A DNA stretch of 64,000 nt from Gemmatimonadota bacterium (lineage in GTDB: Bacteria; Gemmatimonadota; Gemmatimonadetes; Palauibacterales; Palauibacteraceae): assembly GCA_965116475.1 (NCBI GenBank), contig OZ220691.1:2816001-2880000 (forward strand), given 5' to 3'. The translations under genes and the position numbers were made by a program. Below the pieces are notes generated by a model. It worked only from the letters and a program-made list of their open reading frames with translations. It was not told where the DNA came from and did not search any database. This document shows positions 40,837 to 64,000 of this stretch, one piece after another (position 1 is the stretch's first letter; every line of letters begins with the position of its first letter).

Positions 40837-40866
40837 TTGACAAGACTGTTAAACGATTTGGATAAC
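40837..40866 (+). promoter_or_regulatory. Probable promoter/TetR operator of the efflux operon
   Basis: Consensus TTGACA at 40837-42 followed by AT-rich imperfect palindrome TTAAACGATTTGGATAA; -10 not clean. Confidence 0.45.
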
Positions 40867-40878
40867 GCGAGGATCGTG

Positions 40879-41571
40879 ATGGTTCCTCAAGCTCCGGCCG
40901 CCACCCGACCGCCGGATACCGAGCAGAGGATCTTCGACGCCGCGCTGACCGTGTTCGCCCGCAAGGGACGGGACGGCGCGCGACTGCAGGAGATCGCGGA
41001 TCACGCGGGGATCAATCGCGCCCTGCTGCACTATTACTTCCGCACCAAGGAACAGCTCTACGAAGCCGTGTTCGAGCACGGATGCCGGCAGTTCATGGCC
41101 GGACTCAGCCAGTCGCTGCGCGCGGAGGAGGGGGTCGAGGACAGCCTGCGCGCGTTCGTGTACGGCTACATCGACTACATCTACGAGCATCAGGACATGG
41201 CCCGCCTCATGCTGAACGAATGCCTGTGCGGCGGCGGTATCCTGGAGCGGCACCTCGCGGCCGCCATCGAAGCGCGCGAAGAGGTGCCGGGGCTCCTGCT
41301 CGAGGACCGGCTGCGCGCGGCCGTCGGCGCGGGGGAGATCCGGGAGATCGACCTCCGGCACACGCTGCTTACGATCGTGTCGGCCTGCCTGTTTCCGTTC
41401 GTCGCCCTCCCGACCGTGCGCCTCTTCCACTCCCGGGCCGTGGAGGACTTCGACCGCTTCCTGCAGGAACGGAAAGCGCACATCGTCGATCTCCTGCTCG
41501 CCGGCCTGCGGCCGACGGAGGGCGTGGGGCAGGGCATCCGGCCGGGCGTCCGGCAGGGGGAACTCGCGTGA
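40879..41571 (+). CDS. TetR/AcrR family transcriptional regulator
   Basis: TEQRIFDAALTVFARKGRDGARLQEIADHAGINRALLHYYFRTKEQLY. Confidence 0.93.
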   Translation: MVPQAPAATRPPDTEQRIFDAALTVFARKGRDGARLQEIADHAGINRALLHYYFRTKEQLYEAVFEHGCRQFMAGLSQSLRAEEGVEDSLRAFVYGYIDYIYEHQDMARLMLNECLCGGGILERHLAAAIEAREEVPGLLLEDRLRAAVGAGEIREIDLRHTLLTIVSACLFPFVALPTVRLFHSRAVEDFDRFLQERKAHIVDLLLAGLRPTEGVGQGIRPGVRQGELA

Positions 41572-43181
41572 GCGCGGCGACGGCGGTCTCCCGGATCGCG
41601 GTCTCCGGGATCGGCGTGCGCGGTGTCCCCCGAGCCGGAGGGTTTCTTCTTCTCGCGGCAGTTCTCACGGCGGCGGGCGCGTGTTCGTTCGCGCCGGGGC
41701 CCCGGCTCCCGGCCACCGTGGCCGAACTGCCCGCGGCGTACGATGCGGAGGCTCCCCCGGCCGAGGCGGCGCACGAGCCCCGCGACTGGTGGCGCGCGTT
41801 CGAGGACGCGACGCTGGACCGCCTGATCGAGACGGCGCTCGTCGCCAACCTCGACCTGCACGAAGCCGTCGCGCGGCTCGAGGAATTGCGGCACCGGTAC
41901 CGGATCGCGCGGGCGCCGCTCTTCCCGGCGCTGACGCTCGACGCGAACGGCAACCGGTCCAGCACCCCCGCCAACACCGGCCTGGGGTCGCAGTTCGGGG
42001 GCGACGGGGATGACGGCGGCGACAGCCCGATCCCGGGGCTCAGCTTCGACTTCCCCGACCGGTTCGAGTTCACGACCTACTCGGCCTCGCTCGGCTTCGG
42101 CTACGAACTCGATTTCTGGGGCCGGCTGCGCAACGAATCCGGGGCGGCGGTACGCGACTTCCTGGCCTCCCGGGCCGATGCGGAGACCGTGCGGCTCACG
42201 GTCATCGCGTCCACCATCTCGACGTATCTCGAAGTCGTCTCCGCGCGAGGGCAGCTCGCCATCGCCGAGGACAACGTCGATCTGCTGCGGGAGCGCGCGG
42301 AACTCACTCGGGAGCGCTACCAGGCCGGCGTCACGAACACCTTCGAACTCTATGCGATCCGGCAGCAGTACCGGACCGCCGAGTCGAACCTGCCGGGGCT
42401 GCGCACGGCCGTGGACGACGCGGAAGGGCGCCTGGCCCTCCTCGTGGGACGGTACGCGGGGATGATCGAGGACCTTCTGCCGCCCCAACTCGCGCCGGCG
42501 GTCGATGCGACGCCGATTCCCGGCGGACTGCCGGTGTCGCTGCTCGAGGACCGGCCCGACGTCATGGCCGCGTTCGAGCGCGTCGAGGCGGCGCGCCGCC
42601 GGGTCGGGGCCCGCCGGGCCGAGCTGCTCCCCACGATCTCTCTGAACGGGGCCGCGGGACGCCAGGCGGGCGAACTCGGAGACCTGCGGTTCGTCGACCA
42701 GTGGTTCACGAACCTGATCGGCGGCCTCGTGGCGCCGATCTTCCAGGGCGGCCGCCTGCGCGCCAACGTCGGGGCGGCCTGGGCGCAGTACGACCAGGCG
42801 TTGATCGCGTACGCGCGCACGGTGCTGGCCGCCTACCGGGAGGTGCGGACGAGCCTGCGGCAGTTCGAGAACGAGCGGGAGCGGTACGCGCAGGTCATGG
42901 AACAGGTCGCCGACGCCCGCGCCTCGCTGGAGAACCAGTTAGAGCGCTACCAGAGCGGGGTGGGGGACTACGTCGAGTACCTGGACGCGAGGGTGAACCT
43001 GAACGGCGCCGAAACCACCCGGGTGCTCGCCGAACGCGGCATCGGAGAGGCGCGGCTCGCCGTGCACCGGGCCCTGGGCGGCGCGTGGGTGGCGGAGGAC
43101 GTCGAGGACACGGCGGACGCCGACATGAGTGACACGAATGAAGACCCGGGGGCGGCGGCGTCGCTCCCCGATCGGAGATAG
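41568..43181 (+). CDS. RND efflux outer-membrane lipoprotein (NodT/OprM family)
   Basis: AGAC lipobox; WWRAFED.TLD.LIETALVANLDL; YELDFWGRLR; LLEDRPDV.AA; ALGG.W. Confidence 0.92.
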   Translation: MSAATAVSRIAVSGIGVRGVPRAGGFLLLAAVLTAAGACSFAPGPRLPATVAELPAAYDAEAPPAEAAHEPRDWWRAFEDATLDRLIETALVANLDLHEAVARLEELRHRYRIARAPLFPALTLDANGNRSSTPANTGLGSQFGGDGDDGGDSPIPGLSFDFPDRFEFTTYSASLGFGYELDFWGRLRNESGAAVRDFLASRADAETVRLTVIASTISTYLEVVSARGQLAIAEDNVDLLRERAELTRERYQAGVTNTFELYAIRQQYRTAESNLPGLRTAVDDAEGRLALLVGRYAGMIEDLLPPQLAPAVDATPIPGGLPVSLLEDRPDVMAAFERVEAARRRVGARRAELLPTISLNGAAGRQAGELGDLRFVDQWFTNLIGGLVAPIFQGGRLRANVGAAWAQYDQALIAYARTVLAAYREVRTSLRQFENERERYAQVMEQVADARASLENQLERYQSGVGDYVEYLDARVNLNGAETTRVLAERGIGEARLAVHRALGGAWVAEDVEDTADADMSDTNEDPGAAASLPDRR

Positions 43182-43190
43182 GGCGGAACG

Positions 43191-44516
43191 ATGGAAGACG
43201 GAACGCGGCACACGCCGCACGAGGCCGGAGACACCGGAGACACCGGAGACACCGGGGCGCCCGTCGCCCCGCCCGCGTTCATGAAGCGGCTGGTACAGGG
43301 GGCGATCGTCATCGGCGTGGGCGTGTTCGGCTTCGCGCTGCTGTTCGGCATGCGCGCCGAACCGGCGGAAGTGGAGCCGCCGCGCCTGATCCCCACGGTC
43401 AGCACGGTGCCCGCCCGCGTGACGCAGGGCGCGATCAAGGTGCGAGGCGGCGGCACGGTTCGCCCCAGCGCGGAGGTCACGATCGCGTCGCAGGTCGGCG
43501 GGCGCGTGATCTGGACCGCGCCCGCCCTCGTGAGCGGCGGGCGCTTCGCCGAGAACGAACCGCTCCTGCGGGTGGACCCGGCCGACTACGAGAACGCGGT
43601 CGAGGCCGCGGAGGCGGACGTGGCCCAGCGCGAGGTGGCATTGCTGGAAGCCGAGGAGAACGCGCGGCTGGCGCTCGACGAATGGCGGCGGCTCGCGGCC
43701 CGCGAGAACCTCGACCCGACGCCGCCGAACGCCCTCGTCACCCGGCAGCCGCAGCTCGATGCGGCCGCGGCGGCCCTCAGGAGCGCCAGGGCCAGGCTGG
43801 AAGACGCGCGGCTGGCGCTGGAACGGACCTGGATCCGGGCTCCGTTCAACGGGATCGTGCGCGAGGAGACGGTCGATCCCGGGCAGTTCGTCGCGGCCGG
43901 CCAGGCCGTCGGCCGCCTGTACGCGACGGACGCGGTGGAGATCGTCGTGCCGCTGAGCGACAACGAGGCGGCGCTGATCGAACGCCTGTGGAGCGCGCGC
44001 GCGGGCGACGCGGCGACCCGCATCCCGGTCGACATCGTGTCCGAGTACGGCGGCGTCGAGTACGCGTGGTCGGGATACGTGGACCGGGCGGAGGCGGCGC
44101 TCGACGAGCAGACGCGGACGGTCGACGTGGTCGTCACCGTCCCCGAGCCGTTCACTCCCCCGGAGGGCGATCCCCGCCGCCCGCCGCTCCTGCTCGGCAG
44201 CTACGCCACGGTGGACATCGAGGGCACGAGCTTCGAGGAATACGTTGTCGTCCCGGCCGCCGCCGTCCGCGACGGCGATGTCCTCTGGACGGTGGCGGAC
44301 GACACCCTGCTGGTCATGACCCCGGTCGAGCCGATCCAGGAAGTGGACGATGAAGCCGTGGTGCTCGGATCGATCCCGGACGGCACTCCGGTCATCGTTT
44401 CGATGCTCCTCTTCGTCACCGACGGCATGACGGTGCGGCCGGTACAGTTGCTGGAGAGCGCCGAACCGTGGGAGCGGGGCGCCAACGGCGACGGGCGGGA
44501 AGGAGACGGCTCATGA
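43191..44516 (+). CDS. RND efflux periplasmic adaptor (MFP)
   Basis: TM anchor; SQVGGRV; LERTWIRAPFNG.V; DEQTRT. Confidence 0.92.
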   Translation: MEDGTRHTPHEAGDTGDTGDTGAPVAPPAFMKRLVQGAIVIGVGVFGFALLFGMRAEPAEVEPPRLIPTVSTVPARVTQGAIKVRGGGTVRPSAEVTIASQVGGRVIWTAPALVSGGRFAENEPLLRVDPADYENAVEAAEADVAQREVALLEAEENARLALDEWRRLAARENLDPTPPNALVTRQPQLDAAAAALRSARARLEDARLALERTWIRAPFNGIVREETVDPGQFVAAGQAVGRLYATDAVEIVVPLSDNEAALIERLWSARAGDAATRIPVDIVSEYGGVEYAWSGYVDRAEAALDEQTRTVDVVVTVPEPFTPPEGDPRRPPLLLGSYATVDIEGTSFEEYVVVPAAAVRDGDVLWTVADDTLLVMTPVEPIQEVDDEAVVLGSIPDGTPVIVSMLLFVTDGMTVRPVQLLESAEPWERGANGDGREGDGS

Positions 44517-47500
44517 GGCGGGCGATCGGGTGGATGGCCAAGCACGGCGTCGCCGCCAACCTGCTCATGGTGCTGATCATCCTGGCGGGATTCGTGAGCC
44601 TCATCGGTCTGCCCCAGGAGACGTTTCCGGAGATCTCCCTCGACACGATTCAGGTACAGGTCCAGTACCCCGGGGCGTCGCCCGACGAGGTCGAGCAGGC
44701 GATCGTGCGGCGGGTCGAGGAGCGGATCACCGGCATCCAGGGCGTCGATCGCGTGACGAGCGCCGCTTCGGAGGGCGTCGGCATCGTGCTCGCCGAACTG
44801 TCGCTGGGCACGGACGAGTCGAAGACGCTGGACGAGATCAAGTCCGCCATCGACCGGATCACGAGCTTCCCGGTCGACGCGGAGGAGCCGGAGGTGGTCG
44901 CGCTGGCCGCGCAAGGCCGCGTGATGGAGATCGCGATCTTCGGCGATGTCCCCGAGCGGACGCTCAAGGAGATCGCGAACCGGGTCAAGGACGACCTCAC
45001 CTCGCTGCCGGCGATCTCGCTCGTCCGCGTCTCCGGCGTCCGGCAGTACGAGATCTCGATCGAAGTGTCGAAGGCGGCCCTGCGCGCGCACGGCCTCACG
45101 CTGGACGAGGTGGCCGCGGCGGTCCGGCGCGGCAGCCTCGACCTTCCCGGTGGGAGCGTCGAGACGGATCGCGAGGAGATTCTCGTTCACATCCGGGGAC
45201 AGAACTACACGCGGGCGGACTTCGCGGACGTGATCGTGCGGGCCAACGTCGACGGGTCGATGCTCCGCCTCTCGGACGTCGCGGACATCCAGGACGGCTT
45301 CGAGCACGTCGACCTCATCAATGCCTACAACGGGCAGCCGACGGCCTTCGTCCAGGTGCTGCGGACGGGAGACGAGCGCGTCCTGGAGATCTCCGACGAG
45401 GTCGAACGCTACCTGGAAGGGGAGTTGGCCATCTCTCTCCCGCGGGGCGTCGACTACAGCATCTGGCGCTCCGAAGCCTCGTACCTGCAGAGCCGCATCG
45501 ACCTCCTCATCAAGAACGGCCGGCTGGGTCTCATCCTGGTGCTCATCGCGCTGGCCCTCTTCCTCGACCTGCGCCTCGCGTTCTGGACCGCGGTCGGGAT
45601 CTTCCTCTCCTTCGCCGGCGTGTTCGCGGTGATGGCGTGGGCCGGCATCTCGATCAACATGATGGCGCTGTTCGGCTTCATCCTCGCGATCGGGATCGTG
45701 GTGGACGACGCCATCGTGGTGGGGGAGAACATCTTCGCCGAACGGGAGAGGGGAACGGCCGCGCTGCGGGCGGCGATCAAGGGCACGAGACGCGTCTCCG
45801 TGCCCGTGATCTTCGCCGTGCTCACGACCGTGGCGGCGTTCACGCCGCTCCTCTTCGTGCCAGGCAGTCTCGGGAAGTTCCTCTACGTGATCCCCGCGAT
45901 CGTGATCTCCGTGCTGCTGCTCTCGCTCGTCGAGGTCCTGTTCATCCTCCCCTACCACCTCTCGCACCTCCCGGCCCCGGGCGCGAGCCGCGGGAAGGGA
46001 GGCTGGCTGGGGCCCGTCTACCGTCTGCAGGAGATCGTCCAGACGAACCTGCAGCGCTTCATCGACGGGCCGCTGGAGCGCTCCGTGCGCTTCGCCGTGC
46101 GGCGCCCGGGCCTGACCGTGCTCGGGGCCGTTTCCTCCCTGATGATCGTGGGGGGGCTGGTGGCGGGACGGCATCTCCGGTTCAGCCTGCTGCCCGTGAT
46201 CGAGGGCGAGGAGGTCGTCGCCTACATCGAGATGGCCGACGGCACGACCAGCGAGCGCACCGCGGAAGTCGCCAGCTACGTGGAGGGGCAGGGATACGCG
46301 GCGATCGCGGAACTGGAAGCGCAGTTGCCGGATGACGAGCCGCCCCTGGTCGAGGCGGTCTTCACGAGCATCGGGCAGCGTCCCTCGCAGGCCGGAGGCC
46401 CCGGCATGAGCGCCGAGGCGAGCTTCGTGCGGTCGAACATCGCCGAGGTGAGCCTGCGGCTGACCGACCCGGAGATCCGGGATCTGCCGGCCACCGAGGT
46501 GGAACGGGCCTGGCGGGAGCTGGTCGGGCCGGTCGCCGGCGCACGGGAGCTCACGTTCAGTTCCATCCTCATCGATCTGGGGTCGCCGGTGCAGGTCGAG
46601 CTTTCCCACCCGGACACGGCGATGCTGAACGCGGCGGTGCCCGAGTTTACGGACCGCCTGGTGCGCATCGCGGGCGTGACGGAGGTCCGCGACGACCGGG
46701 GCCGGGGCAAGCGCGAGCTGGAGCTGGAACTCAAGCCCGCCGCCCGCACGCTCGGGATCACGCTCGACGACCTGGCGCGCCAGGTGCGCGGGGCGTTCTT
46801 CGGGAACGAGGTCTATCGCCTGCAGCGGGGCCGCGACGAAGTGCGCGTCTACGTCCGGCTCCCGGAATCGGAGCGCAACACGCTCGCCGACCTCCAGGAC
46901 TACCGGATCCGCACGCCGACGGGCGGCGAGGCGCCGCTGTCGGAGGTTGCGGACGTGTCCTTCGGCATCGCCTCATCGACGATCAACCGGATCGATGGAC
47001 GCCGCATCGTGACGGTCACGGCCGATGTGGACGCCGCCGTGATCACGGGACAGGAGGTCAACACGGAGATCACCTCGACCATCCTGCCGGAACTGCAGGC
47101 CCAGTTCCCGGGCCTCCGCTACGGGTTCGGCGGAGAGCAGCGGCAGCAGACGCTGGCGTTCGAGGGGATCGCCCGCGGTTTCCTCCTTGCCCTCCTCGCG
47201 ATCTACGCGCTCCTCGCCATTCCCTTCCGCTCGTACCTGCAGCCGCTGGTCGTCATGGCGTCGATCCCGCTGGGGCTCGTGGGCGCCGCGATCGGACACC
47301 TGATCATGGGGCTCGACCTCGGCATGCTCTCCATGTTCGGGCTCGTGGGCCTGTCGGGCGTGGTCGTGAACGACTCGCTGGTGCTGATCGATTTCATCAA
47401 CGAACGGCACCGAAGCGGGCTCCCGATGCCGGAGGCCATCGTGCAGGGGGCCAAGGTCCGCTTCCGCCCCATCATGCTGACCTCCGTGACGACCTTCCTC

Positions 47501-47722
47501 GGGGTGTCGCCGATCATCCTCGAGCGCAGCACGCAGGCGCAGTTCCTCTCGCCCATGGCGGTGAGTCTCGGGTTCGGGATCCTGTTCGCCACCTTCATCA
47601 TCATGCTCGCCGTGCCGGCCCTGGCGATGATGAACTACACGTTCACCGTGCGGGCGCAGCGGGTCTTCGCACGCTGGCGGCGGAAGCCGGAACTGGGCCT
47701 GGCGGGAGGGCTCGAGCGCTGA
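44513..47722 (+). CDS. RND efflux permease (AcrB/AcrD/AcrF family)
   Basis: [46 protein letters not shown]. Confidence 0.95.
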
Positions 47723-48627
47723 ACGACCGCTCGGGCGCCTGGCTGGCGTCGCTCGAGTCCGAAGCCATCGAAATCCTTCGCGAGGGCCTCGCGGAGGCTT
47801 CGCGGCCCGTGATGCTGTATTCGATCGGGAAGGACTCCTCGGTGCTCCTGCACCTGGCCCGGAAGGCGTTCTGGCCGGCGACGCCGCCGTTCCCGCTGCT
47901 CCATATCGACACCACGTGGAAGTTCCGGGAGATGATCGCGTTCCGGGACCGGACGGCGGCCGAAGCGGGCGTGGAACTTCGGGTTCACACGAACGAGGAC
48001 GGGTTGCGCGAGGGCGTCAATCCGTTCGATCACGGATCGGAACGCTACACCGATGTCATGAAGACGGCGGCGTTGCGGCAGGCGCTCGACGAGGGCGGGT
48101 ACGACATCATCTTCGTCGGCGCCCGGCGCGACGAGGAGAAGTCGCGCGCCAAGGAGCGCGTGTTCTCGCTGCGCAACGCGGCTCACCAATGGGATCCGAA
48201 GGCCCAGCGCCCGGAGCCGTGGAACCTCTACAACACCCGCCTGGCACCCGGCGAGTCCCTGCGCGTCTCCCCGCTCTCAAACTGGACCGAGGCGGACGTC
48301 TGGCGGTACATCCGCACAGAGGAGATCCCGATCGTCCCGCTCTACTACGCCGCAGAACGCCCCGTCGTCGAGCGGGATGGACGGTGGATCATGGTCGACG
48401 ATGACCGGATGTCGCTCCTCCAGGGCGAGGCGCCGCAGCAACGGCGCATCCGCTTCCGGACGCTGGGCTGCTACCCGCTGACGGCCGCGGTCGAGAGCGA
48501 CGCGGATACGCTCGATGCCGTCATCGCCGAGACGCTCGGCACGGACCGCTCCGAACGCGAGGGGCGCCTCATCGACCATGACCGCGACGGTTCGATGGAA
48601 CTCAAGAAGCGCCAGGGCTACTTCTGA
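47719..48627 (+). CDS. cysD: Sulfate adenylyltransferase subunit 2
   Basis: [11 protein letters not shown]...[53 protein letters not shown]; homology extends up to CTG 47719. Confidence 0.93.
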
Positions 48628-52282: not shown

Positions 52283-52360
52283 CTAAGTTCACCCGCGAGC
52301 ATTCATTCTGTGGCAGGAGACCCACAACCCCCAGCAACCCATTCCACGAGGATGAAGCGG

Positions 52361-52636
52361 ATGAGCGAGCCACGCGAAGCCCCCGCCATGAGGAATCCGG
52401 TCGACTTCGCCATCGTCGGCGACAACATCATGGACATCGCCGATTTCGCGATCGAGAAGTACGAGTTCACGAGCGGCACGACGCTGTCCGACGAGGCGCG
52501 GGAAGAAGCGATCGAGCGGGTCCGGGATGCACTTTGGGAGATGGTGAAGGCATTCCGGAACCGGCGGAAGGAGTGGCGCAAGAAGCTGTTCGACGCCGCC
52601 GACGAGGCCGTGCGGACCTCCGTCAAAGGTTCCTGA
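52361..52636 (+). CDS. Small hypothetical helical protein
   Basis: GAGG RBS; host-like codon use; NPVDFAIVGDNIMDIADFAIEKYEF...; start uncertain (52352/52361/52388). Confidence 0.65.
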   Translation: MSEPREAPAMRNPVDFAIVGDNIMDIADFAIEKYEFTSGTTLSDEAREEAIERVRDALWEMVKAFRNRRKEWRKKLFDAADEAVRTSVKGS

Positions 52637-52676
52637 TTCGCATGGCGTGACCGGCCGGCGACGGGAGTAGTTCAAC

Positions 52677-54455: not shown

Positions 54456-54642
54456 CCTTTACCCGGCAGTGCGTGGCGAAGGCTCTGCTGCGTTCGGGCG
54501 CGCTCGACGGACGTTTGCTGGCTGGCGGACGGCTCGCTAACGTGGCCGCGACCACTCCGGAAGCGCTCGAAGCAATCTCAAGACAGCAACAGGCCGGCGT
54601 CCCGGCGTTCGCGCTCGGGGGCGCCCGCCGAGCGGGGGCCAT

Positions 54643-57600
54643 GTGACTTCCATCGCAGGTACATCCAGCGATCCCATTGCCATCGTCGGCTACGCTTACC
54701 GGATGCCCGGCGGCATCCGCACGGACGAGGATTTCTGGCGGCTCCTGAGCGAACGCGAGGTTGTCCAGGAATCCGTCACGGAGCGCTACGGCCGGGGCTA
54801 CCAGCCGATCGGCCGGTTCTCGGGCCCGGGCCGTTTCGGCAGTCCTTACGAAGGGCTGCTCCGGGACGAACTGGAGCAGCGGATGGATCCGGGCCTGTTC
54901 GGGGTCTCCCACCACGAAATGGCCTATATGGATCCGCAGATCCGAATGCTGCTGGGCTGCGCGTGGGAGAGCTGCGAACACGCCGGCTGGAGCCTGAACG
55001 CCCTCCGCAACAGTCGCACGGGCGTCTTCATCGGAGCCCAGGTCGCCTCCACCGCGAACTGGCGTGCCCTGTTCGGGACCAACGAGTTCTCCATCCTGAG
55101 CATCGACGCGTCGATGCTGGCGAACCGGATCTCCTACCATCTCAACCTCATGGGGCCGTCGATCGCGACCTCCACCGCCTGCTCGGCGTCGCTGACCGCG
55201 CTTCACACGGCGGTGAACGCGATGCGCCAGGGCGATTGCGAGCAGGCCCTGGTGGGCGCCGCCACCTACCTGGGGTCCGCCCGCTGCAGCGCCTCCTTCA
55301 ACGCGCTCGGCGTCATCAGCCCCGATGGCCGGTGTCATTCCTTCGACGCCGACGCCAACGGGTACATGCGGTCCGAAGGCGCGTTCGTGTTCGCCGTCAA
55401 GCCGCTCGAAGCGGCCGAGCGGGACGGAGACCACATCTTCGCGGCGATCGAAGCCACGGCGGTCAACACGGCCGGGACCGCCGATGACGCCGCCGGACTC
55501 GCCCAGGGGCGCTACATCACGGCGCCGACGCGCCACTCGCAGGTCGAACTCATGCGCGAGGCCTGCGGACGCGCGGGACTGCGGCCGGAGGACTTCGATT
55601 ACGTGGAGGCGCACGCGACCGGCACGGTCGTAGGCGACCGCATCGAAGGGAACGCCATTGCCGAGGCGTTCGGCGGCGTCGAGCGCGACGTGCCGCTCCG
55701 CGTGGCCAGTGTGAAGAGCAACGTGGGACACCTCGAGGCGGCGGCGTTCAGCTGTGCGCTGCTGAAGGTCATCCTCATGATGCGGCGCCGGACGTTCGCC
55801 CCCATCTCGAAGAACTACCTGGTTCCGAATCCGGAGATCGATTTCGACCGCGGCCCCATCGAGGTGCAGACTGCCTGCGAGCCGTTCCCCGACCGCCCCG
55901 TCGTGGTCGGGATCAACTCCTTCGGGTTCGGCGGCGCGAACGGACACTGCATTGTGCGGGAGTACCGGCCGGACCCATCCAGAACGTGGTCGGTGTCGCT
56001 GGCGTCCGACGCCGGCTACATGATCCCTCTTTCGGCGCGGACGCCGAAGGCTCTGGAGGAAAGCGCGCGAAGCCTGCGGGAGTTCCTCGGCGGACAGGAG
56101 ACCGACCTCTACACGCTGGCCGGAAACCTGGGCCGGCGCCGCGCACAATTTCCCGTGCGCACGGCGTTCGCCGTCCGCAGCCCCTCGACGCTGGTCGAGG
56201 CACTGGACGCCTTCGTGGAAGACCCCTCCCCGGTCTCCACGGTGGAAGCGGGCGAGCGCCAGGTGGCCATGGTGTTCTCGGGGCAGGGCACCCAGTGGGC
56301 GGGGTGCGGGCGCGATCTCTACGACGCGGACCCCGTCTTCCGGCGGGTCGTTGACGCCATCGAGGAGGAGTGGCGGAAGCACTCGGATGTGTCGCTGCGC
56401 GACGCCTGTTTCTCGGCGAGCCAGAAGGACTTGAACGAGGTTCAGCTCGCCCAGCCGGTCATCTTCATGATCCAGTGTGCTTTGGTGGAGGTGCTGGCGA
56501 CATGGGGTGTCCATCCGGAGTGCGTCGTCGGACACAGTTCGGGCGAGGTTGCCGCGGCGTACGCGAGCGGGGCCCTTTCCCTCGCCGAGGCGACGCGGCT
56601 CGTCTACCACCGGGCGACGCTGCAGCAGCGGGTGGCCGGCTCCGGCCGGATGCTGGCGATCGGCCTCGACCGGCCGGCCGTAGAGAACCTGCTAGACAAC
56701 CACCGGCCCGCCGAAGTGGAGATCGCCTGCGAGAACTCGCCCGCCAACACCGTCATCTGCGGGAAGGAAGCCGCGCTGCGGCCCGTGATGGCCGAACTCG
56801 ACCGGCGCGGCCTGCAGAACCGGCTGATCCCCGGGAACATCGCGTTCCATTCCACCGCCATGGATCCGCTGCGGGATGACGCACTGGCGGTGCTCGCCTT
56901 CCTGGACGGAGGCGACTTCAACGGCGATGTGCCCATGGTGTCCTCCGTCACGGGGGAGACGGTGGAGCGTCTGGATAACGCCTACTGGTGGTCCAACATC
57001 CGGAACCCTGTCCTCTTCGGAGCCGCAATGGAGACCGTGAGGCGGGAATTCCGGCCCGACGTGGTCCTGGAGGTCGCTCCGCACGGCGCGCTGCAGCCCC
57101 TGATCCGGCAGTGTCTGGAGGCGGCCGGGCCGGCTGCCGTCTGTCTCCCCACGCTGATGAAGGACGCGGACGGGTGCCTGGGCTTTCAGGAAGCTCTGGG
57201 GAACCTCTACCGGGCCGGCGTCGCGCTGGATTTCGCTTCCCAGTATCCGCGTCCGGAACCGATCGCTCATCTCCTTCCCGGCCATCCCAGGGAAGAGACC
57301 ACGACCAGTGACGACCTGGTCGACGACGAGATGTTCGTCCAGCGAGGCGAGTACTCCCACGGCCCGTTCGTCGGACACCGGGTGGCCTGCGATCACATCC
57401 TGTTCGAGGCGCGGCTCTCCGAGAGGGACTTCCCCTGGTTGACCGACCACCGCGTCCACCGGGCCCCGATCATTCCGGCCGCCGGATACATCGAACTCCT
57501 GCTGCAGGCGTTCTCCGGGGATCCCATCAACATCGAGGAGATCGAGTTCCTGCAGCATACGCCGGTGAACGCGACGCCGGTGCGCCTGCAGACCGCCCTG

Positions 57601-60600
57601 TTTCCCGTGCCCGACGCTCCCGGCCAGTTCACGTTCACCATCTCCACTCGATCCTTCGAGGATGATGAGGCGGGAACGCTGCACTGTCGCGGACGGGTGC
57701 GGCGCGTGGATGAGGACGTTGCCGTCGACGCGTTCCCGACGCTGGACGATGTCCTCGCTTCCGACTTCGATCCCTCGCCCCTCGCGACCGGAGAGGAGTT
57801 CTACGACCAGATTGAAGCGGTCGTAGGAGATGCGTTCGAGTTCGGCCCGGAGTTCCGCAGCGTCCAGCGCATCGAGATCGACGCGGGTTCGACGGACATG
57901 CTGTTCGAAATCGAGGTCGACGAGGAGCTGTGGGCGTCCGGCCGCGAGGAGGGATACCTCCTCTATCCCCCGCTCACGGACGGCGGACTGCAGATCTTCC
58001 TGCGCTACCTGATGCGCCTGCCGGACTTCTTCTCCATGCCGCAGCGTGCGTGCGACATCACGTTCGTGCGTCCCCCGACGGGGCCGCGCATCACCTGTTT
58101 TCTCGTCGATACGGGCGACTGGTTCGACGTGGACGAACGGGGCCAGTACAACAAGCCTCTCGGCGAACTGTACATCGGGCGGCTCAGCCTCTACGACACC
58201 GATACGGGGCAACTGCTCGCCCACATCGGAGAGTATCACTCCTTCAACAGCAATCCGCGCTGGAGCGACGTCCCGGACAGCAAGCACGTCATCCGCTGGC
58301 AACCGAAGTTCGTGCCCGCGTCGCCCCGGATCGAAGACGCGATCCGGGATGGGGATGTAGATCCCGCCGCCCTCATCGCCGCCCTCGAACAGGGTGCGGC
58401 AGGCCACCCGTACGCCTGCCACGTCGTCGAGATCGCCGGCCGCCGGGACGCGGAACGGACCATGCTCAACCGATGCCTGGAGCATCTCTCCGGACCCGAT
58501 GCGCAGAGCGAGTTCTGGCTGCTCGGGGACGACGAAGAGTCCACGCGCGCACTCTACGAAGCCTTCAATCACCGCGATGCCCCGATTCGCTTCGCCTCAC
58601 TGGAAGCCACGGCGGCAGCCACGGCGGAGGGCGCCTCCGAGACGGATATGGCGACGGGTCTGCTACGGCCCGCCGCAGCCGAAATCGTCATCGTACATCG
58701 TGACGCGGACGAGGACGGAGCGACCGCGGATCGCTGGGGTGCGGCGTGGTCGATGCTCGCGCGGCTGGCCGTACCCGGGGGGCTCGCACTCGTCTCGCAT
58801 GACGAGAACGACGTCGTCGAGCCGGGGGACGGCTGGAGCACGCTTCACGCCGGCCCCCGCACGACGCTCCTGCAGGCTGCGCAGGAGGGTCCCGCGCCGG
58901 CCGGCGCAACCACCGCGTCGGCCGCCGGCCCCCGCTGGGTGATCGGCGAACCCGGCAGCCCGGCCACGGAGTGGGTCGCGCAACTCGAGTCGGCCCAGGC
59001 GTATCTCGTCCCCTGGAGCGCCATCGAAGGCGGCGATTTCGCATCGCTGGAAGAGTGGCCGTGGGGCGAGGACCTCGAGGCGATCGATTTCTTCCTCGGG
59101 ACAGCCCCGGATGATCCGACCGGCGAACGGGCGGTGTGGCGCCTCGTCGCCTTCCTTCAGGCCCTCACGCCCCTCCGGCTGGAGAGCGCGACACGGCGTT
59201 GTCGCCTGAACGTCGTCACGCAGGGCGCCGTGTGCGGCGTGGAGGAGCCGCGGGGAAGCGCCCTGTGGGGCGCCGCACGGAGCCTGGCGCTCGAGCTTCT
59301 CGCCGAGGACACGAAGATCGACTTCCGTCTCGTGGACCTGGGCGCGCCCGGCGATCTCGAGGCAGTGGCCCGACTCGACGCGTGCGACCCTCGCGAGCGG
59401 GAGCTGGCTGTCAGGGACGGACGCCTGTGGGTGCCGCGCGTCGTGAGCGTTCGGGATCGCTGGCCGCTCGTGCCCGAGGGCGCGGATCCCCCCTATCGGC
59501 TTCGGCTCGACAACCCGGGCCAGGTGAGCGGTCTGCAGGTGGCGACAACGACGTTGCCCCGGCTCGGACCCTCCGACGTCGAGATCGAGATGGCCGCGGC
59601 GGCGCTGAACTTTCGAGATGTCATGGTGACGCTGGGGCTCCTTCCCGCGCTGGCCTACGAGCGCTCGGCGCTGGGCCGCGAGGTCGGCATCGAGGGAAGC
59701 GGCATCGTCCGCCGCGCCGGACCGGACGTGAAGCGTCTGAGCCCCGGGGACGAGGTGGCCGTTACGACGGGCGGCTGCATCGCCAACCGAATCGTCGTGA
59801 ACGAGCACCTGGCCTTCCTCAAGCCGCCCGAGCTGAGCATGGAGGAGGCCGCGGCGTCGCTCTCCGTGACCGTGACCGCGTACTATGCGCTCATCCACCT
59901 GGCGCGGCTGAAGGAGGGGCAGCGGGTCCTCATCCACTCCGCAATGGGCGGCGTCGGACAGGCGGCGATCGCGTTGGCGCACCATGTCGGGGCGGAGGTC
60001 TACGCGACCGCCGGCAACCGGAGCAAGCGCGAACGGTTGCTCGAGATGGGCGTGCGCGGGGCGTTCGATTCGCACAGCCACGACTGGTACGACGACCTGA
60101 TGGAGGCGACCGGGGGCGAGGGCGTGGATGTCGTGCTGAATTCGCTCGCGGGCTACCACATCGCCCTCTGCCTCAAGGCCCTGAGGCCTTCCGGGTGGCA
60201 CTGCGAGATCGGGAAGGTCGACATCTTCACGGACAACTCGCTCGGCATGCGGGTCTTCCGCAAGAACCTCCGCTTCGCCGCGATCGACGTCGACCGGCTG
60301 ATGCTCGACGATCCGGTGCTGTCGCACACGCTCTCGCAGGCCTGTCTGGACCTCATGAACGAGGGCGCGGTGCCTCCACCCAGGCTCACCGCCTACGAAT
60401 ACCGCGACTACGCGAGGGCGCTCCGACTGATGACGACGGGCCGGCACCAGGGGAAACTGGTCCTGAAGGCGCCGTCCGACCCTGCGGATCGCGGGTTCGC
60501 GATCGCGGACACGCGCCCCTTCCTCGACCCCGAGGCCACCTATCTGGTCACGGGTGGGCTGGGCGGCTTCGGACTGCGCCTGGTGCCCTACCTGATCGCG

Positions 60601-61713
60601 GCGGGGGCCCGGCACGTCACGCTGATGGACCGCGACCCGGAGCGTCGACGGAGCGCGGAGTGGCTCCGGCAGACGACCACGCTGTCGAAGATGCCGGGCG
60701 ATTACGAGATCGAGATCGTCTCGGGCGACGTGCGCGAGGCGGAGGACGTGCGCCGCTGCGTCGCCGGGCTGCAGCGGCCGCTCAAGGGCGTGTTCCATCT
60801 CGCCGGAACGCTGGAGGACCGCTCGTTCCTCGACACCTCCGCCGATTCCCTGGAGAACGTGTTCGCGCCCAAGGCGCGCGGCGCTCTGAACCTGCACGAG
60901 GCCACGGCCGGCTGCGCCCTCGACTACTTCGTCCTCTTCTCGTCCATCGCTTCGACGTTCGGGAACGTGGGGCAGGTCAACTACAGCAGCGCGAGCGCCT
61001 TTCTGGACGGGCTGGCGGCCTGGCGCCGCCGACAGGGGCTGCCGGGGTTTTCGTACAACCTCGGCCCCGTCACGGAGGTCGGGATGGCGGCACGCAGCCT
61101 CCACGTCATGCGGATGATGCGCGCGGCGGGAATGACGACCGTGAGCGCGAACTTCGCGATCGCCAACCTCGATTACGCCCTGCGCGCGATGGCGCCCGGC
61201 ACGACGGAGCATGGCACGACCGGGCATGACCACCTGGTCACCGCGCTGTTCTCGAACCCGGCGTGGACCGTCGATTCCCCGGACTACATGCGCAACGGGC
61301 GGTTGCTCAACAATCAGGCGGCGTTCGAGGTGAACGTGCGCGGCGAACTGACCCTGGAGAGCGTCGTCGCGCAGATCTCCGCCAAGGTGGCCGAACTCTG
61401 CGGGCACGAAGAGGGCGATGTCGAGGAGCCGCTGTCGAGCTTCGGCCTTACGTCGATTTCAGTCGCTGAACTCGGCGCCTTCATCCAGGCGCAGTTCAAC
61501 CGGCAGGTGAGCGCCCTCGAGCTGATGACGACCGCCTCCGCCCAGTCGCTGGCGGAGATGATCGTGCATGGAGCCGAATCGGATGCCGAGGGTGAGACCG
61601 TGGCCGAGACCGATGGGTCGGCGGATGTCTCACCGCAACGCGTACACCAGGTACACAGGCGGCGTTCGCCCTTTGCGAACAGGTTGGAGGACCACTTCCC
61701 GATCCAGTCATGA
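54643..61713 (+). CDS. swfA: Mono-modular highly reducing type I PKS/FAS (KS-AT-DH-ER-KR-ACP), SwfA-like
   Basis: KS TACSAS/EAHATGT/NVGHLE; AT GQGTQW/GHSSG/IAFHS; DH HRVHRAPIIP/DGGLQ; ER LIHSAMGGVGQA; KR GGLGGFG/YSSA; ACP FGLTSI. Confidence 0.88.
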   Translation: MTSIAGTSSDPIAIVGYAYRMPGGIRTDEDFWRLLSEREVVQESVTERYGRGYQPIGRFSGPGRFGSPYEGLLRDELEQRMDPGLFGVSHHEMAYMDPQIRMLLGCAWESCEHAGWSLNALRNSRTGVFIGAQVASTANWRALFGTNEFSILSIDASMLANRISYHLNLMGPSIATSTACSASLTALHTAVNAMRQGDCEQALVGAATYLGSARCSASFNALGVISPDGRCHSFDADANGYMRSEGAFVFAVKPLEAAERDGDHIFAAIEATAVNTAGTADDAAGLAQGRYITAPTRHSQVELMREACGRAGLRPEDFDYVEAHATGTVVGDRIEGNAIAEAFGGVERDVPLRVASVKSNVGHLEAAAFSCALLKVILMMRRRTFAPISKNYLVPNPEIDFDRGPIEVQTACEPFPDRPVVVGINSFGFGGANGHCIVREYRPDPSRTWSVSLASDAGYMIPLSARTPKALEESARSLREFLGGQETDLYTLAGNLGRRRAQFPVRTAFAVRSPSTLVEALDAFVEDPSPVSTVEAGERQVAMVFSGQGTQWAGCGRDLYDADPVFRRVVDAIEEEWRKHSDVSLRDACFSASQKDLNEVQLAQPVIFMIQCALVEVLATWGVHPECVVGHSSGEVAAAYASGALSLAEATRLVYHRATLQQRVAGSGRMLAIGLDRPAVENLLDNHRPAEVEIACENSPANTVICGKEAALRPVMAELDRRGLQNRLIPGNIAFHSTAMDPLRDDALAVLAFLDGGDFNGDVPMVSSVTGETVERLDNAYWWSNIRNPVLFGAAMETVRREFRPDVVLEVAPHGALQPLIRQCLEAAGPAAVCLPTLMKDADGCLGFQEALGNLYRAGVALDFASQYPRPEPIAHLLPGHPREETTTSDDLVDDEMFVQRGEYSHGPFVGHRVACDHILFEARLSERDFPWLTDHRVHRAPIIPAAGYIELLLQAFSGDPINIEEIEFLQHTPVNATPVRLQTALFPVPDAPGQFTFTISTRSFEDDEAGTLHCRGRVRRVDEDVAVDAFPTLDDVLASDFDPSPLATGEEFYDQIEAVVGDAFEFGPEFRSVQRIEIDAGSTDMLFEIEVDEELWASGREEGYLLYPPLTDGGLQIFLRYLMRLPDFFSMPQRACDITFVRPPTGPRITCFLVDTGDWFDVDERGQYNKPLGELYIGRLSLYDTDTGQLLAHIGEYHSFNSNPRWSDVPDSKHVIRWQPKFVPASPRIEDAIRDGDVDPAALIAALEQGAAGHPYACHVVEIAGRRDAERTMLNRCLEHLSGPDAQSEFWLLGDDEESTRALYEAFNHRDAPIRFASLEATAAATAEGASETDMATGLLRPAAAEIVIVHRDADEDGATADRWGAAWSMLARLAVPGGLALVSHDENDVVEPGDGWSTLHAGPRTTLLQAAQEGPAPAGATTASAAGPRWVIGEPGSPATEWVAQLESAQAYLVPWSAIEGGDFASLEEWPWGEDLEAIDFFLGTAPDDPTGERAVWRLVAFLQALTPLRLESATRRCRLNVVTQGAVCGVEEPRGSALWGAARSLALELLAEDTKIDFRLVDLGAPGDLEAVARLDACDPRERELAVRDGRLWVPRVVSVRDRWPLVPEGADPPYRLRLDNPGQVSGLQVATTTLPRLGPSDVEIEMAAAALNFRDVMVTLGLLPALAYERSALGREVGIEGSGIVRRAGPDVKRLSPGDEVAVTTGGCIANRIVVNEHLAFLKPPELSMEEAAASLSVTVTAYYALIHLARLKEGQRVLIHSAMGGVGQAAIALAHHVGAEVYATAGNRSKRERLLEMGVRGAFDSHSHDWYDDLMEATGGEGVDVVLNSLAGYHIALCLKALRPSGWHCEIGKVDIFTDNSLGMRVFRKNLRFAAIDVDRLMLDDPVLSHTLSQACLDLMNEGAVPPPRLTAYEYRDYARALRLMTTGRHQGKLVLKAPSDPADRGFAIADTRPFLDPEATYLVTGGLGGFGLRLVPYLIAAGARHVTLMDRDPERRRSAEWLRQTTTLSKMPGDYEIEIVSGDVREAEDVRRCVAGLQRPLKGVFHLAGTLEDRSFLDTSADSLENVFAPKARGALNLHEATAGCALDYFVLFSSIASTFGNVGQVNYSSASAFLDGLAAWRRRQGLPGFSYNLGPVTEVGMAARSLHVMRMMRAAGMTTVSANFAIANLDYALRAMAPGTTEHGTTGHDHLVTALFSNPAWTVDSPDYMRNGRLLNNQAAFEVNVRGELTLESVVAQISAKVAELCGHEEGDVEEPLSSFGLTSISVAELGAFIQAQFNRQVSALELMTTASAQSLAEMIVHGAESDAEGETVAETDGSADVSPQRVHQVHRRRSPFANRLEDHFPIQS

Positions 61714-64000
61714 CCCAGTCTACGGCGCCGGCGGCGCCCCGCCGCCCGGTCCCGCCACTGGTCGGGAAGCTGCCGCCGCAGTGCGAACGCGACCTCACAG
61801 CGCTGCGTGGCTTCGTGCGCGCGGCCCTGACCGGAGCGGCGCCGGCGGCGGCCGTGTCTCCTTCCAAAATCCGCCACGTGTTCGTGACCGGCGCGACCGG
61901 CTTCATCGGGCGCTTCCTGGTGCGCGAACTGCTGGCTCATGACGCCGGCCTGCAGGTGCACTGCCTCGTGCGGGCGGCGAGCGTGGAGGAGGGGCTCGGG
62001 CGGGTGCGCGCGAACATGGAACACGCGGAGATATGGGACGATGACTTCGCTCCGCGCATCCACGTCAGCCCGGGGGACATCGCCCAGCCGCGGCTCGGCC
62101 TGTCGCGCGCCGACTTCGACCATCTCTGCGCGAACATCGACGCCGTCTACCACCTCGCCGCCACGCTGAGCCTGGCCGCTTCATACGCCGCCATCCGCCG
62201 CGTGAACGCGTCCAGTCTTCGCAACGTGCTGGAGCTGTGCCTGCGCACGCGCCACAAGCACCTGTTCTACGCCGGGACGATGGGGATCTTCCCCCAGTAC
62301 GCCTGCGCCTTCGCGCACGAGTACGAGGGGAGCCGCATCGGTCACCAGGCGCAGCCCGACCTGGCGGACATGAAAAGGGTGTTTCCGCTCGGGCTGCTGG
62401 GATACCCCTGGAGCAAGCTCGTCGCCGAGCAGGCGTTGCTGTTCGCGCAGTCGGCCGGTCTCCCGGTGGCCGTGTTTCGCCTGGGGCAGACCAGCATGGC
62501 ATCGACCGGATACAGTCAGCCGAGCAATGTCAGCCACCGGCTCTACGCGGCGGCCGCGGACATCGGATCGTTTCCATCCGGATTCACCCTGCAGTCCACC
62601 AACGACCCGGCCGATACGCTGAGCCGCATCTGCACCGACATCTCATTGAACCCGGAACGACGGTTCACGCTCTACAACTGCTGCAATCCGACACCTTCCT
62701 ATCGCACGGTGTCGCTCGAGGAAGTCGGGCTGGACTTGCCGGAGGTGTCGTACCAGGCCTTCAGGCGCGCCTGCCGGGCGCGCGGCGACGCCTCTCCGAT
62801 GGCGGGATCCTGGCCGATTCTCGATCACTTCGGACGCTACTGGCTGCGGGGGGCCGAGGCGGCCACGTCGCTCCCGATCAGCGACCGCGCCATTCGCGAG
62901 GACAGTCCCGGGCCGATTGAATGGCCCGGCCCGCTGACCCGTTACGTGCGTTTCAACCGGTGGGTCCGGGCGCATCCCGAAGACTGGCCCCATCCGGTGC
63001 CGCGCCGCGGCCTGGACTTCGACCGGCTGGTGAAGCAGGCGCGGCGCTATGCCGAAGAAGCCGGGGTCTCTTTCGAGGACACCTACCCCGAGTGGATGCT
63101 CGAAGGGATGGAGCAACTCGTGGAAGTGCTCAACTCACCCGAGGCGACCCTGCCGGAAGACCGAGTCGGCCACATCGTCTTCGACATGTGCCGGATGCTG
63201 CGGAACAACGCGGAACTCGCCAGTGAACGCGTGCGCCTTCCCGCGATCGAGCGGCAGGAGATCGTCCGACCCGTGTTCATCGTGGGCATCAACCGGACGG
63301 GCACCACCTACCTGCACCGCCTCATGGCCCGGGACCCCCGGTTCTGGACGCTGCGGGCGTACGAGTACGTCGAGCCCGTCATCGCCGGCGGCGATTACGC
63401 CGGCCTGGCCGGCACGCCCGAGGACCCGCGCCGCCCGTTGGCGGCCGACGTGTTCAAGGCGTCGGGCATCATCGATTCCTTCAAAGGGACTCACCAGATC
63501 GGCATCGACGAGCCGGAAGAGGACATGCCGATCCTCCGGCTCTCGTTCAGAGCCTGGATGTTTGCCACCCGGCATCCCATCCCGACCTACGAGCGCTGGC
63601 TCGAAGCGAGCGGCTCGCGTGAATCGTACGCCCTGCACCGACGCGTCATGCAGCACTACACCTGGCAACGCCGGGAGCGGTATCGCGGGGCCGACGGACA
63701 GTGGTTGTTCAAGATGCCGACGCATCTCAGGGAGCTGGAGGCGCTGACCGAAGCCTATCCTGACGCGTTGTTCATCCAGACGCACCGCGAGCCCGCGCAG
63801 TTCATGGGATCGTGGTGCAGCCTGGTCGAGCGGATTCGTGCGGACGTCAGCGAGCCGCGTCCGCCGCATGAGCTGGGCGCCGAACAGTTGCGCGCGATGA
63901 GCCGCCTCCTCGATCGGGCGGTGGATTTTCGCGAGTCGCACCCGGAACTGGACGACCGTTGGATCGATGTGAGTTACTACGATCTGGTTGAAGATCCGAC
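61710..64000 (+). CDS. swfB: Thioester reductase (SDR) - sulfotransferase fusion, SwfB-like; runs off window end
   Basis: ATGA overlap with PKS; VFVTGATGFIGRFL and GYPWSK (YxxxK); in the same frame PVFIVGINRTGTTYLH (from 63270) and WLFKMP...IQTHREP...GS sulfotransferase motifs; absent from the ORF track because no stop falls in the window. Confidence 0.88.
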   Translation, partial: MTQSTAPAAPRRPVPPLVGKLPPQCERDLTALRGFVRAALTGAAPAAAVSPSKIRHVFVTGATGFIGRFLVRELLAHDAGLQVHCLVRAASVEEGLGRVRANMEHAEIWDDDFAPRIHVSPGDIAQPRLGLSRADFDHLCANIDAVYHLAATLSLAASYAAIRRVNASSLRNVLELCLRTRHKHLFYAGTMGIFPQYACAFAHEYEGSRIGHQAQPDLADMKRVFPLGLLGYPWSKLVAEQALLFAQSAGLPVAVFRLGQTSMASTGYSQPSNVSHRLYAAAADIGSFPSGFTLQSTNDPADTLSRICTDISLNPERRFTLYNCCNPTPSYRTVSLEEVGLDLPEVSYQAFRRACRARGDASPMAGSWPILDHFGRYWLRGAEAATSLPISDRAIREDSPGPIEWPGPLTRYVRFNRWVRAHPEDWPHPVPRRGLDFDRLVKQARRYAEEAGVSFEDTYPEWMLEGMEQLVEVLNSPEATLPEDRVGHIVFDMCRMLRNNAELASERVRLPAIERQEIVRPVFIVGINRTGTTYLHRLMARDPRFWTLRAYEYVEPVIAGGDYAGLAGTPEDPRRPLAADVFKASGIIDSFKGTHQIGIDEPEEDMPILRLSFRAWMFATRHPIPTYERWLEASGSRESYALHRRVMQHYTWQRRERYRGADGQWLFKMPTHLRELEALTEAYPDALFIQTHREPAQFMGSWCSLVERIRADVSEPRPPHELGAEQLRAMSRLLDRAVDFRESHPELDDRWIDVSYYDLVEDP

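Follow-up and report, generated by a model that had tools for sequence, protein, structure and literature searches.

In rhizobia, NodP and NodQ form a second CysD/CysN-CysC set dedicated to supplying 3′-phosphoadenosine 5′-phosphosulfate (PAPS) for the sulfation of Nod factors with NodH, and the sulfolipid-1 (SL-1) of Mycobacterium tuberculosis depends on Pks2, Stf0, MmpL8 and PAPS from CysD/CysNC. Here we describe a bacterial locus with likenesses to both systems. It lies in a 64,000-nucleotide stretch of DNA from a Gemmatimonadota bacterium of the genus Candidatus Palauibacter (assembly GCA_965116475.1, contig OZ220691.1, positions 2,816,001 to 2,880,000), hereafter the window, and places a swf cluster in one run with cysD and cysNC. 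The swf cluster was defined in sponge symbionts by Della Sala et al. 2013 (PMC3908369). As described in the available part of that report, it comprises swfA, with one module of ketosynthase (KS), acyltransferase (AT), dehydratase (DH), enoylreductase (ER), ketoreductase (KR) and acyl carrier protein (ACP) domains; swfB, with a reductase and a sulfotransferase; and swfC, for a B12 radical S-adenosylmethionine (SAM) enzyme, which some clusters lack. The same part gives sizes of ~2350 amino acids for SwfA and ~835 for SwfB, describes swf-specific primers built on the AT signature regions FSGQGTQW and QCALVEL, and suggests, without data, an alkyl sulfate, maybe methylated, as the product. Swf-like clusters were surveyed in 2022 in Nitrospirota, Latescibacterota and Acidobacteriota (PMC9426513), in whose available text terms beginning with sulfat, as well as sulfotransferase and PAPS, are absent. 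Among the lipid-type synthase clusters of sponge microbiomes, swf is one of the two with the widest distribution. In the literature that we searched, no product has been reported since 2013, and a search with most subscription journals outside its coverage returned no paper linking swf to cysD, cysN or cysC.

What is new here is that swf is joined, at the level of a genus, to the only sulfate-activating genes of the genome, and we regard this PAPS link as the useful new point. From gene content and context we consider it probable that a 17.6-kb island at 47719-65329 (cysD, cysNC, a permease gene, a gene for a small protein, swfC, swfA, swfB and a short-chain dehydrogenase/reductase [SDR] gene) makes an alkyl sulfate with its own PAPS, behind a resident efflux operon. 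The locus resembles NodPQ in that a CysD and a CysN-CysC fusion of the same family (NF004035) are encoded beside the sulfotransferase that they would feed. In rhizobia, however, these genes supplement a housekeeping set, whereas here they are the only set in a genome with no assimilation pathway, and the proposed acceptor is a lipid alcohol rather than an oligosaccharide. With the SL-1 system it shares an iterative, fully reducing type I polyketide synthase (PKS), a sulfotransferase, a transporter of the resistance-nodulation-division (RND) superfamily and a CysN-CysC source of PAPS. In SL-1, by contrast, trehalose carries the sulfate and the acyl chains are attached as esters, the cys genes lie outside the lipid locus of an organism that assimilates sulfate, and the transporter is an MmpL protein, not a tripartite AcrB-type pump. 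The closest relative is the published swf cluster itself, which has the same three core genes and domain orders, the FSGQGTQW signature, a sponge-symbiont host and homologs of the permease and small protein (ORF17 and ORF19), although the available part of PMC3908369 does not count the latter two as swf genes. Our locus differs from it in being continuous with cysD/cysNC within a genome unable to reduce sulfate, in having the radical SAM gene upstream of swfA and an SDR gene after swfB, and in having no STAS gene.

RESULTS

A swf cluster in one gene run with cysD and cysNC

All coordinates below are positions in the window unless a genome or locus is named. The genome is a single 3.62-Mb contig of ~70% G+C and is 96.3% complete by marker genes. 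A Pfam scan together with the junction sequences gave 11 genes, all on the + strand, between 40879 and 64000. This bore out the co-directional run, with its overlaps and domains, that a first-pass annotation of the window had described from the sequence; we extended SwfB to 64226 and added the SDR gene behind it. The genes of the island are as follows:

47719..48627, + strand: CysD, sulfate adenylyltransferase small subunit (NF009214, 497 bits against a cut-off of 413); left end of the island
48627..50507, + strand: CysN-CysC fusion of the NodQ type, GTPase subunit plus adenosine 5′-phosphosulfate (APS) kinase (NF004035, 900 bits against a cut-off of 715)
50507..52282, + strand: divergent permease of the NCS2 fold with a C-terminal cytoplasmic domain (PF00860, 121.9 bits)
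52352..52636, + strand: small conserved swf-associated protein, 94 amino acids, no Pfam or NCBIfam match; equals ORF19/POR_0546
52677..54455, + strand: SwfC, B12-binding radical SAM enzyme, class B, methylase-like (B12-binding, Radical_SAM, DUF4070)
54643..61713, + strand: SwfA, single-module fully reducing type I PKS/fatty acid synthase (FAS), 2356 amino acids (KS-AT-DH-ER-KR-ACP)
61710..64226, + strand, past the window end: SwfB, thioester reductase-sulfotransferase fusion, 838 amino acids (NAD_binding_4 at 59-294, Sulfotransfer_3 at 521-779)
64223-65329, + strand, beyond the window: SDR, its GTG start overlapping the SwfB stop

Judged by domain order and signature motifs, the core four genes (small open reading frame [ORF], swfC, swfA and swfB) are the published swf cluster of sponge symbionts, as the first-pass annotation had recognized for the last three. 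SwfA has the KS motifs Cys180/His324/His362, the AT motif GHSSG, IAFHS and the ACP serine region; its AT carries FSGQGTQW exactly at residue 545 and QCALVEV, one residue off QCALVEL, at 611. It is presumably iterative. The CX3CX2C motif of SwfC is CPFDCEFC at residue 176. SwfB contains GATGFIG for NAD(P) binding, YPWSK and the PAPS-loop-like NRTGTTYLH, and scores 185.7 bits with TIGR01746, under the cut-off of 213. Homologs of SwfB that are 55-90% identical occur in metagenome-assembled genomes (MAGs) of sponge symbionts from many phyla, and most sequencing runs in which the stretch occurs bear the label sponge metagenome. Reductase-sulfotransferase fusions are common more generally, with 563 of the scored candidate proteins reaching E ≤ 1e-20.

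The solved structures closest to SwfB are the MxaA reductase 4u7w (E 5e-38) for the reductase and 2zq5 (E 4e-37) and 2z6v for the sulfotransferase half; the latter two we take to be mycobacterial Stf sulfotransferases. The MxaA reductase converts a thioester to a primary alcohol. Because the SwfB reductase domain is closest to this terminal reductase, we favor release of the chain as an alcohol.

The only sulfate-activation system of the genome

We searched the whole genome for the enzymes that make and consume PAPS. The PAPS_reduct family (PF01507) had a single match, which is the CysD of this locus (the control profile was positive in 14/14 known genomes). No match was found genome-wide for sulfite reductase NIR_SIR (PF01077; control positive in 11/14 known genomes) or for ATP sulfurylase (controls positive in known genomes). 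APS kinase had one strong match, CysNC (227.9 bits); a second match covers 41 profile positions only, at 22.9 bits. The cysD-cysNC pair is the sole sulfate-activation system of the genome. Because no CysH, sulfite reductase or ATP sulfurylase was found in the genome, its PAPS would be usable only for sulfation. The first-pass annotation had noted that cysH, cysI and cysJ are absent from the window and had read PAPS as destined for sulfation rather than assimilation; both statements now hold for the entire single-contig genome, in which these searches left no route from PAPS to sulfide. A finding that this cysD/cysNC is the only housekeeping copy would, by its own account, have counted against its reading. 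It is indeed the only copy, but with no reduction genes it is not a housekeeping copy for assimilation.

The start of cysD is unusual. Its frame holds no ATG, GTG or TTG between 46335 and 47809, and CysD profiles match from residues 7-9 of a protein initiated at a CTG that shares nucleotides with the TGA stop of the RND gene before it (47719-47722). This CTG and a GGGAGG 9 nt upstream are kept in 9/9 orthologous junctions, and we take the CTG start to be real. In two Longimicrobiales loci (L051 and L052) and in one relative (G019), an ATG stands at or just upstream of the start of CysD homology.

An island behind a resident efflux operon

The genus set comprised 24 other genomes, 10 with SwfB and 14 without swf; among the 10, swfB has an in-frame TAG in one, is split in another and is present as contig-end fragments only in a third. 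The same 10 genomes hold a CysNC 88-91% identical to that of our locus, and a CysNC of ~90% identity occurs in 0/14 swf-less genomes. Of these 14, two have a diverged CysD-CysNC elsewhere, three a lone CysC at the site and five a distant CysC elsewhere, and four have no match. The order TetR, outer-membrane factor (OMF), membrane-fusion protein (MFP), RND, CysD, CysNC, permease, small ORF, swf, right flank is found in all eight relatives in which a contig spans the region (8/8).

Two swf types occupy this one site, rSAM-SwfA-SwfB-SDR, as here, and SwfA-rSAM-SwfB. Between the types, SwfA is ~63% and SwfB ~55% identical, while the flanking cys and permease genes are 88-94% identical throughout; in one genome (G020) the two types lie in tandem (L032:7159-18496, L033:1-11272). 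We argue that two divergent swf cassettes behind the same cys genes therefore point to selection of the neighborhood rather than to its mere inheritance. In two relatives (G003 and G006) a type-1 SwfA (91-92% identical) is paired with a SwfB of a third allele (62-68% identical). The G003 swfB has the in-frame TAG (G003:C31:6206-8704), and that of G006 is split by a 3.5-kb insert (L047:1057-4554) with a tyrosine recombinase of the phage integrase family; the cluster is decaying in some relatives.

The genes upstream of the island in the window are these:

40879..41571, + strand: TetR-family regulator (TetR_N, TetR_C_29), first gene of the efflux operon
41568..43181, + strand: outer-membrane efflux factor, NodT/TolC type (OEP; TIGR01845, 282 bits against a cut-off of 210)
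43191..44516, + strand: RND periplasmic adaptor, or MFP (HlyD_3; TIGR01730, 142.6 bits against a cut-off of 94.9)
44513..47722, + strand: RND inner-membrane pump, AcrB family (ACR_tran, E 1e-166)

Together they form a tripartite RND pump set (OMF, MFP and RND permease) with a TetR regulator; the OMF and MFP families are over their cut-offs, and the RND subfamily models are under theirs. The junctions along the run are GTGA at 41568, TAG-9 nt-ATG at 43191, ATGA at 44513, CTGA at 47719, and TGATG at 48625-48629 and 50505-50509. The GTG start of the OMF gene at 41568 is putative, as ortholog alignments begin at residues 1-48. An AT-rich segment at 40830-40878 holds TTGACA, GATAAC 18 nt further on and then GAGGA before the TetR ATG, and is likely the promoter of the efflux operon; no inverted repeat that could serve as a TetR operator was found in 40740-40900.

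RND orthologs of 55-94% identity are present in 14/14 swf-less genomes of the genus. In all five swf-less contexts that we retrieved, OMF-MFP-RND stands at the same place and is followed by the same right flank, directly in two (G021 and G019) and after a lone CysC in three (G010, G013 and G017). TetR orthologs of 86-97% identity precede the pump both in relatives with swf (G020 and G023) and in relatives without it (G010 and G013). Because swf-less relatives have the pump and then the same right flank, the efflux operon is a core locus and 47719-65329 is cargo; by this synteny, the 17.6-kb segment is an island inserted behind a resident efflux operon. Since the CTG start of cysD overlaps the pump stop, expression of the island probably depends on read-through from the pump operon.

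To the right the run ends at a convergent aldehyde dehydrogenase gene (65345-66727, − strand; PF00171, E 2e-137), and on the left it is bounded by a gamma-glutamyltranspeptidase gene on the opposite strand. Direct repeats of ≥11 nt were not found at the island borders, and no integrase stands at the borders in this genome.

A divergent permease, a small helical protein and STAS

The permease has a membrane part at about residues 20-440 and a C-terminal cytoplasmic domain of ~150 residues. It passed PF00860 (cut-off 27) and failed the NCBIfam models TIGR00801 (147.7 against 291.8) and TIGR03173 (169.6 against 414); Sulfate_transp (PF00916) and STAS had no match in it, and a Protein Atlas search returned Xan_ur_permease clusters only. 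The predicted model (pLDDT 67.5) is closest to UapA, UraA and SVCT1, and then to SLC26 transporters. The "EH" and "EN" positions of UraA, which we take to be uracil binding, align with uncharged permease residues, and the helix that holds these positions also has a nearly invariant R264. On this alignment nucleobase transport is unlikely, and an anion is a plausible substrate. The C-terminal domain resembles HATPase_c_2 (PF13581) at E 8.7e-4 and 19.7 bits, under the cut-off of 27.4. The arrangement of strands and helices in its model is consistent with an RsbW/SpoIIAB fold, and the alignment shows no clear Asn and Gly boxes of the usual kind. An hhalign comparison with two genuine members from the same genome, made with single sequences, gave a probability of 0.1-0.2%, and a profile search of the PDB gave nothing. 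The domain is possibly a degenerate RsbW/SpoIIAB-like fold.

The small ORF, whose start is most likely the ATG at 52352 judged by its orthologs, is modelled as a two-helix hairpin (helices 15-41 and 47-92, pLDDT 83.7). We considered a serine-less ACP-like protein and rejected it, as the model is a two-helix hairpin and not a four-helix bundle. The model had no match at E ≤ 0.001 in a fold search of the PDB, and the Protein Atlas held no usable match. The family is small, with 87 representative clusters in 1.84 billion proteins. Both genes were already present on the fosmid pPS11G3 of 2013, as ORF17 and ORF19 (92 amino acids), and our permease is 73% identical over its C-terminal part to that "Permease" (557 amino acids). 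The closest homolog of ORF17, according to Table 1 in the available part of PMC3908369, is SupE of the sup cluster.

Among 80 wider swf loci, found with a SwfB profile and taken with 10-kb flanks, 59 have a SwfC homolog, 44 the small ORF, 11 the permease and 22 a STAS gene or fusion. With our query, small-ORF homologs were found in 0/18 alphaproteobacterial and 0/4 Spirochaetia loci. In 18 loci a STAS gene lies directly upstream of the small ORF, in 4 loci the two are fused, and STAS is carried by 20 of the 25 longer family members that we scanned. It is N-terminal to the small protein in Acidobacteriota loci (L073:12708-13490, L075, L077 and L108) and in 19 further representatives (e.g., P0248); in P0280 the order is reversed. 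Tandem duplicates of the small gene are frequent in Nitrospirota loci. In Palauibacter, no STAS gene was found in the 35 kb searched. This co-occurrence indicates that the permease, STAS and the hairpin protein are an accessory module travelling with swf in several phyla; our guess is that its role is anion transport under STAS-type control.

The first-pass annotation had gone further and proposed a complete pathway for a secreted sulfolipid: the whole 23 kb would be one dedicated pathway, with the NCS2 protein importing sulfate and TetR/RND serving as the product's own regulator and exporter. We find this rather unlikely. Although all genes are tightly chained, including by the CTGA between the RND gene and cysD, and 40000-56000 has no terminator-like site, the pump stands at the same locus without swf in 5/5 contexts, that is, unlinked from swf in relatives, and its orthologs occur in every swf-less genome of the genus, so its place as the dedicated export part was not borne out. 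Elsewhere swf does recruit a different MFP-RND pair, which stands beside swfB in seven loci from alpha- and gammaproteobacterial sponge MAGs (L091, L095, L096, L098, L111, L113 and L122) in three orientations; these RND proteins are 47-88% identical to one another but only 33-36% identical to the Palauibacter pump. Nor is the import of sulfate supported, even though the permease adjoins cysNC here and a cysC in a Spirochaetia locus (L102) and its uncharged UraA-aligned positions and R264 would suit an anion: the protein is not a SulP (PF00860 only), falls under the NCS2 cut-offs, does not keep the UraA residues, and the single SulP (PF00916) gene of the genome lies elsewhere (328604-329683). 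In addition, the fosmid permease is closest to SupE by Table 1 in the available part of PMC3908369, and the sup cluster is not known to be sulfated. Of the proposed pathway, then, the swf core and the PAPS link stand, while the pump as a member and the uptake of sulfate by the NCS2 gene do not; likewise, of the linkage of cysD/cysNC and RND to swf, the cys part holds in the genus and in other phyla, and the RND part does not, as the pump is resident here and of another lineage in Proteobacteria. We would therefore warn against counting a neighboring RND pump as a pathway gene. The resident pump may since have been recruited to export the product or to protect the cell, and RND export or self-protection may reasonably be suspected as a recurring theme of swf.

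The PAPS link beyond the genus

The wider SwfB relatives come from other Gemmatimonadota/Longimicrobiales, Nitrospirota, Alpha- and Gammaproteobacteria, Acidobacteriota, Latescibacterota, Spirochaetia and Rhodothermales. In 14 of the 80 loci SwfB has an APS-kinase domain no more than 10 kb away, in differing gene orders: 9/9 in Nitrospirota, 2/26 in other Gemmatimonadota, 2/4 in Spirochaetia and 1/18 in Alphaproteobacteria. In all nine Nitrospirota loci the kinase stands directly 3′ of swfB, either fused to CysN or as a lone CysC. The order in the Longimicrobiales loci L051 and L052 is swf, small ORF, cysNC, cysD, and in the Spirochaetia locus L102 the APS kinase adjoins the permease homolog. 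An APS kinase was present somewhere in the genome in 50/50 swf genomes searched (50 of the 74 loci first listed). On these gene orders, the physical link between cys and swf is recurrent, far above chance and lineage specific, but not universal. The tie of cysD/cysNC to swf that the first-pass annotation had proposed thus holds in 10/10 swf genomes of the genus, is contiguous in 8/8 and recurs in other phyla. An 80-residue APS-kinase fragment (G067:C1:1003530-1003766, in L094) lies inside a Longimicrobiales swf locus, with a full APS kinase at a distance of 0.5 Mb, and is perhaps what remains of an earlier link between cys and swf. In another locus (L057, G045), a second swfA follows the first cluster.

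A proposed pathway for an alkyl sulfate

We propose that SwfA would build a saturated acyl chain iteratively on its own ACP and that SwfC would introduce one or more methyl branches. Release of the chain as an aldehyde or alcohol would be the task of the reductase half of SwfB, the extra SDR may complete the step from aldehyde to alcohol, and the sulfotransferase half would sulfate the alcohol with PAPS. The PAPS would come from the adjacent CysD/CysN-CysC, the only sulfate-activation system of a genome unable to reduce sulfate. The predicted product is a long-chain, probably methyl-branched alkyl sulfate, a surfactant similar to sodium dodecyl sulfate (SDS). Because swf and PAPS genes are linked in three or four lineages, because PAPS would serve only sulfation here and because the permease, STAS and the hairpin protein travel with swf, the alkyl-sulfate idea moves from a domain-based guess to a testable hypothesis with genomic support. 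The island, 17.6 kb on a closed chromosome, is now defined as a complete unit for heterologous expression.

Several observations weigh against this proposal. The available parts of PMC3908369 and PMC9426513 give no product for any swf cluster, and Table 1 in the available part of PMC3908369 lists no cys gene for the 2013 fosmid. Contigs of the only RNA run, a sponge metatranscriptome library with a strain 95-99% alike, cover 30/30 bins of 44001-64000 and are a hint of expression in favor of the proposal, but they were kept as contigs only, from which strand, level and co-transcription are not readable, and DNA carry-over is possible. A scan of 40000-56000 for promoters and terminators was uninformative, with one promoter-like site against 1.0 expected and no terminators. 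The genomes of the genus are kin, and the 10/10 co-occurrence may reflect few events. Three swf-less relatives (G010, G013 and G017) retain a lone cysC at the site, so cys genes occur there without swf. At least two other Sulfotransfer_3 loci are present in the genome (G000:C1:1665981-1667473 and 2487320-2488432), and the PAPS supply need not serve swf alone. Finally, among the 20 swf genomes that are single chromosomes, swfB and the APS kinase are neighbors in 5, 20-45 kb apart in 4 and farther apart in 11.

Some of these observations would suit a second reading, in which cysD/cysNC is a general PAPS supply for all sulfotransferases of the cell that just happens to occupy the same variable cargo site as swf, with no special functional coupling. 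It is the only copy in a genome with further sulfotransferase loci at ~1.666 and ~2.487 Mb, the cargo of the site varies among relatives (nothing, cysC alone, or cys with swf), and APS kinase is far from swf in most swf genomes. We nevertheless judge such hitch-hiking improbable. Adjacency has arisen independently in other gene orders (Nitrospirota 9/9, Longimicrobiales L051/L052 and Spirochaetia), and by our own estimate the chance of finding a single-copy gene within 10 kb in a genome of 3-5 Mb is well under 1%. Within the genus, moreover, no swf-less genome has the high-identity CysNC, and orthologs of a stand-alone sulfotransferase occur in two genomes (G007 and G014) that both have no APS-kinase match. 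That stand-alone gene, one of the extra Sulfotransfer_3 genes of our genome, is a paralog of the C-terminal half of SwfB and 35% identical to it.

A more speculative extension of the alkyl-sulfate proposal, to which we give little credence, would make a gated anion transporter the fourth part of swf. The C-terminal domain of the permease would act as a degenerate anti-sigma-kinase-like domain, and its partner switching with STAS and the hairpin protein would couple the entry of sulfate or the exit of alkyl sulfate to lipid synthesis, and in Palauibacter, where STAS would have been lost, the module and the only PAPS supply would be wired behind a detergent-type RND pump as a self-contained factory for a secreted SDS-like surfactant.

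Least of all do we favor sulfate as a leaving group on the way to an unsulfated alkene, ether or amine lipid: the available part of PMC3908369 itself raises the curacin precedent and notes that widespread alkyl sulfate from sponges has not been reported, and CurM/olefin synthase likewise has a PAPS-dependent sulfotransferase at the end of a PKS/FAS line, but there the beta-hydroxyl is sulfated and a thioesterase is needed for decarboxylative elimination, whereas SwfB has a reductase and no thioesterase domain after its sulfotransferase, its upstream reductase would remove the thioester of the carboxyl carbon and make such elimination unavailable, and a costly dedicated PAPS supply would fit a stoichiometric sulfate ester as well or better.

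Further features of the locus and its relatives

High-GC shadow ORFs are abundant in the window. One 787-amino-acid + strand ORF to the right of the island (65393-67756) is mostly an antisense shadow of the − strand aldehyde dehydrogenase gene, and we rejected it as a marker of the flank. One swf-less relative (G024; L134:3244-6963) carries a P450-sulfotransferase fusion of 799 amino acids and a second sulfotransferase just upstream of its diverged CysD-CysNC, and this locus may represent another PAPS-fed pathway in the genus. Within the island, the small ORF and swfC (52352-54455) have G+C contents of 0.63 and 0.62, against 0.68-0.72 in their neighbors.

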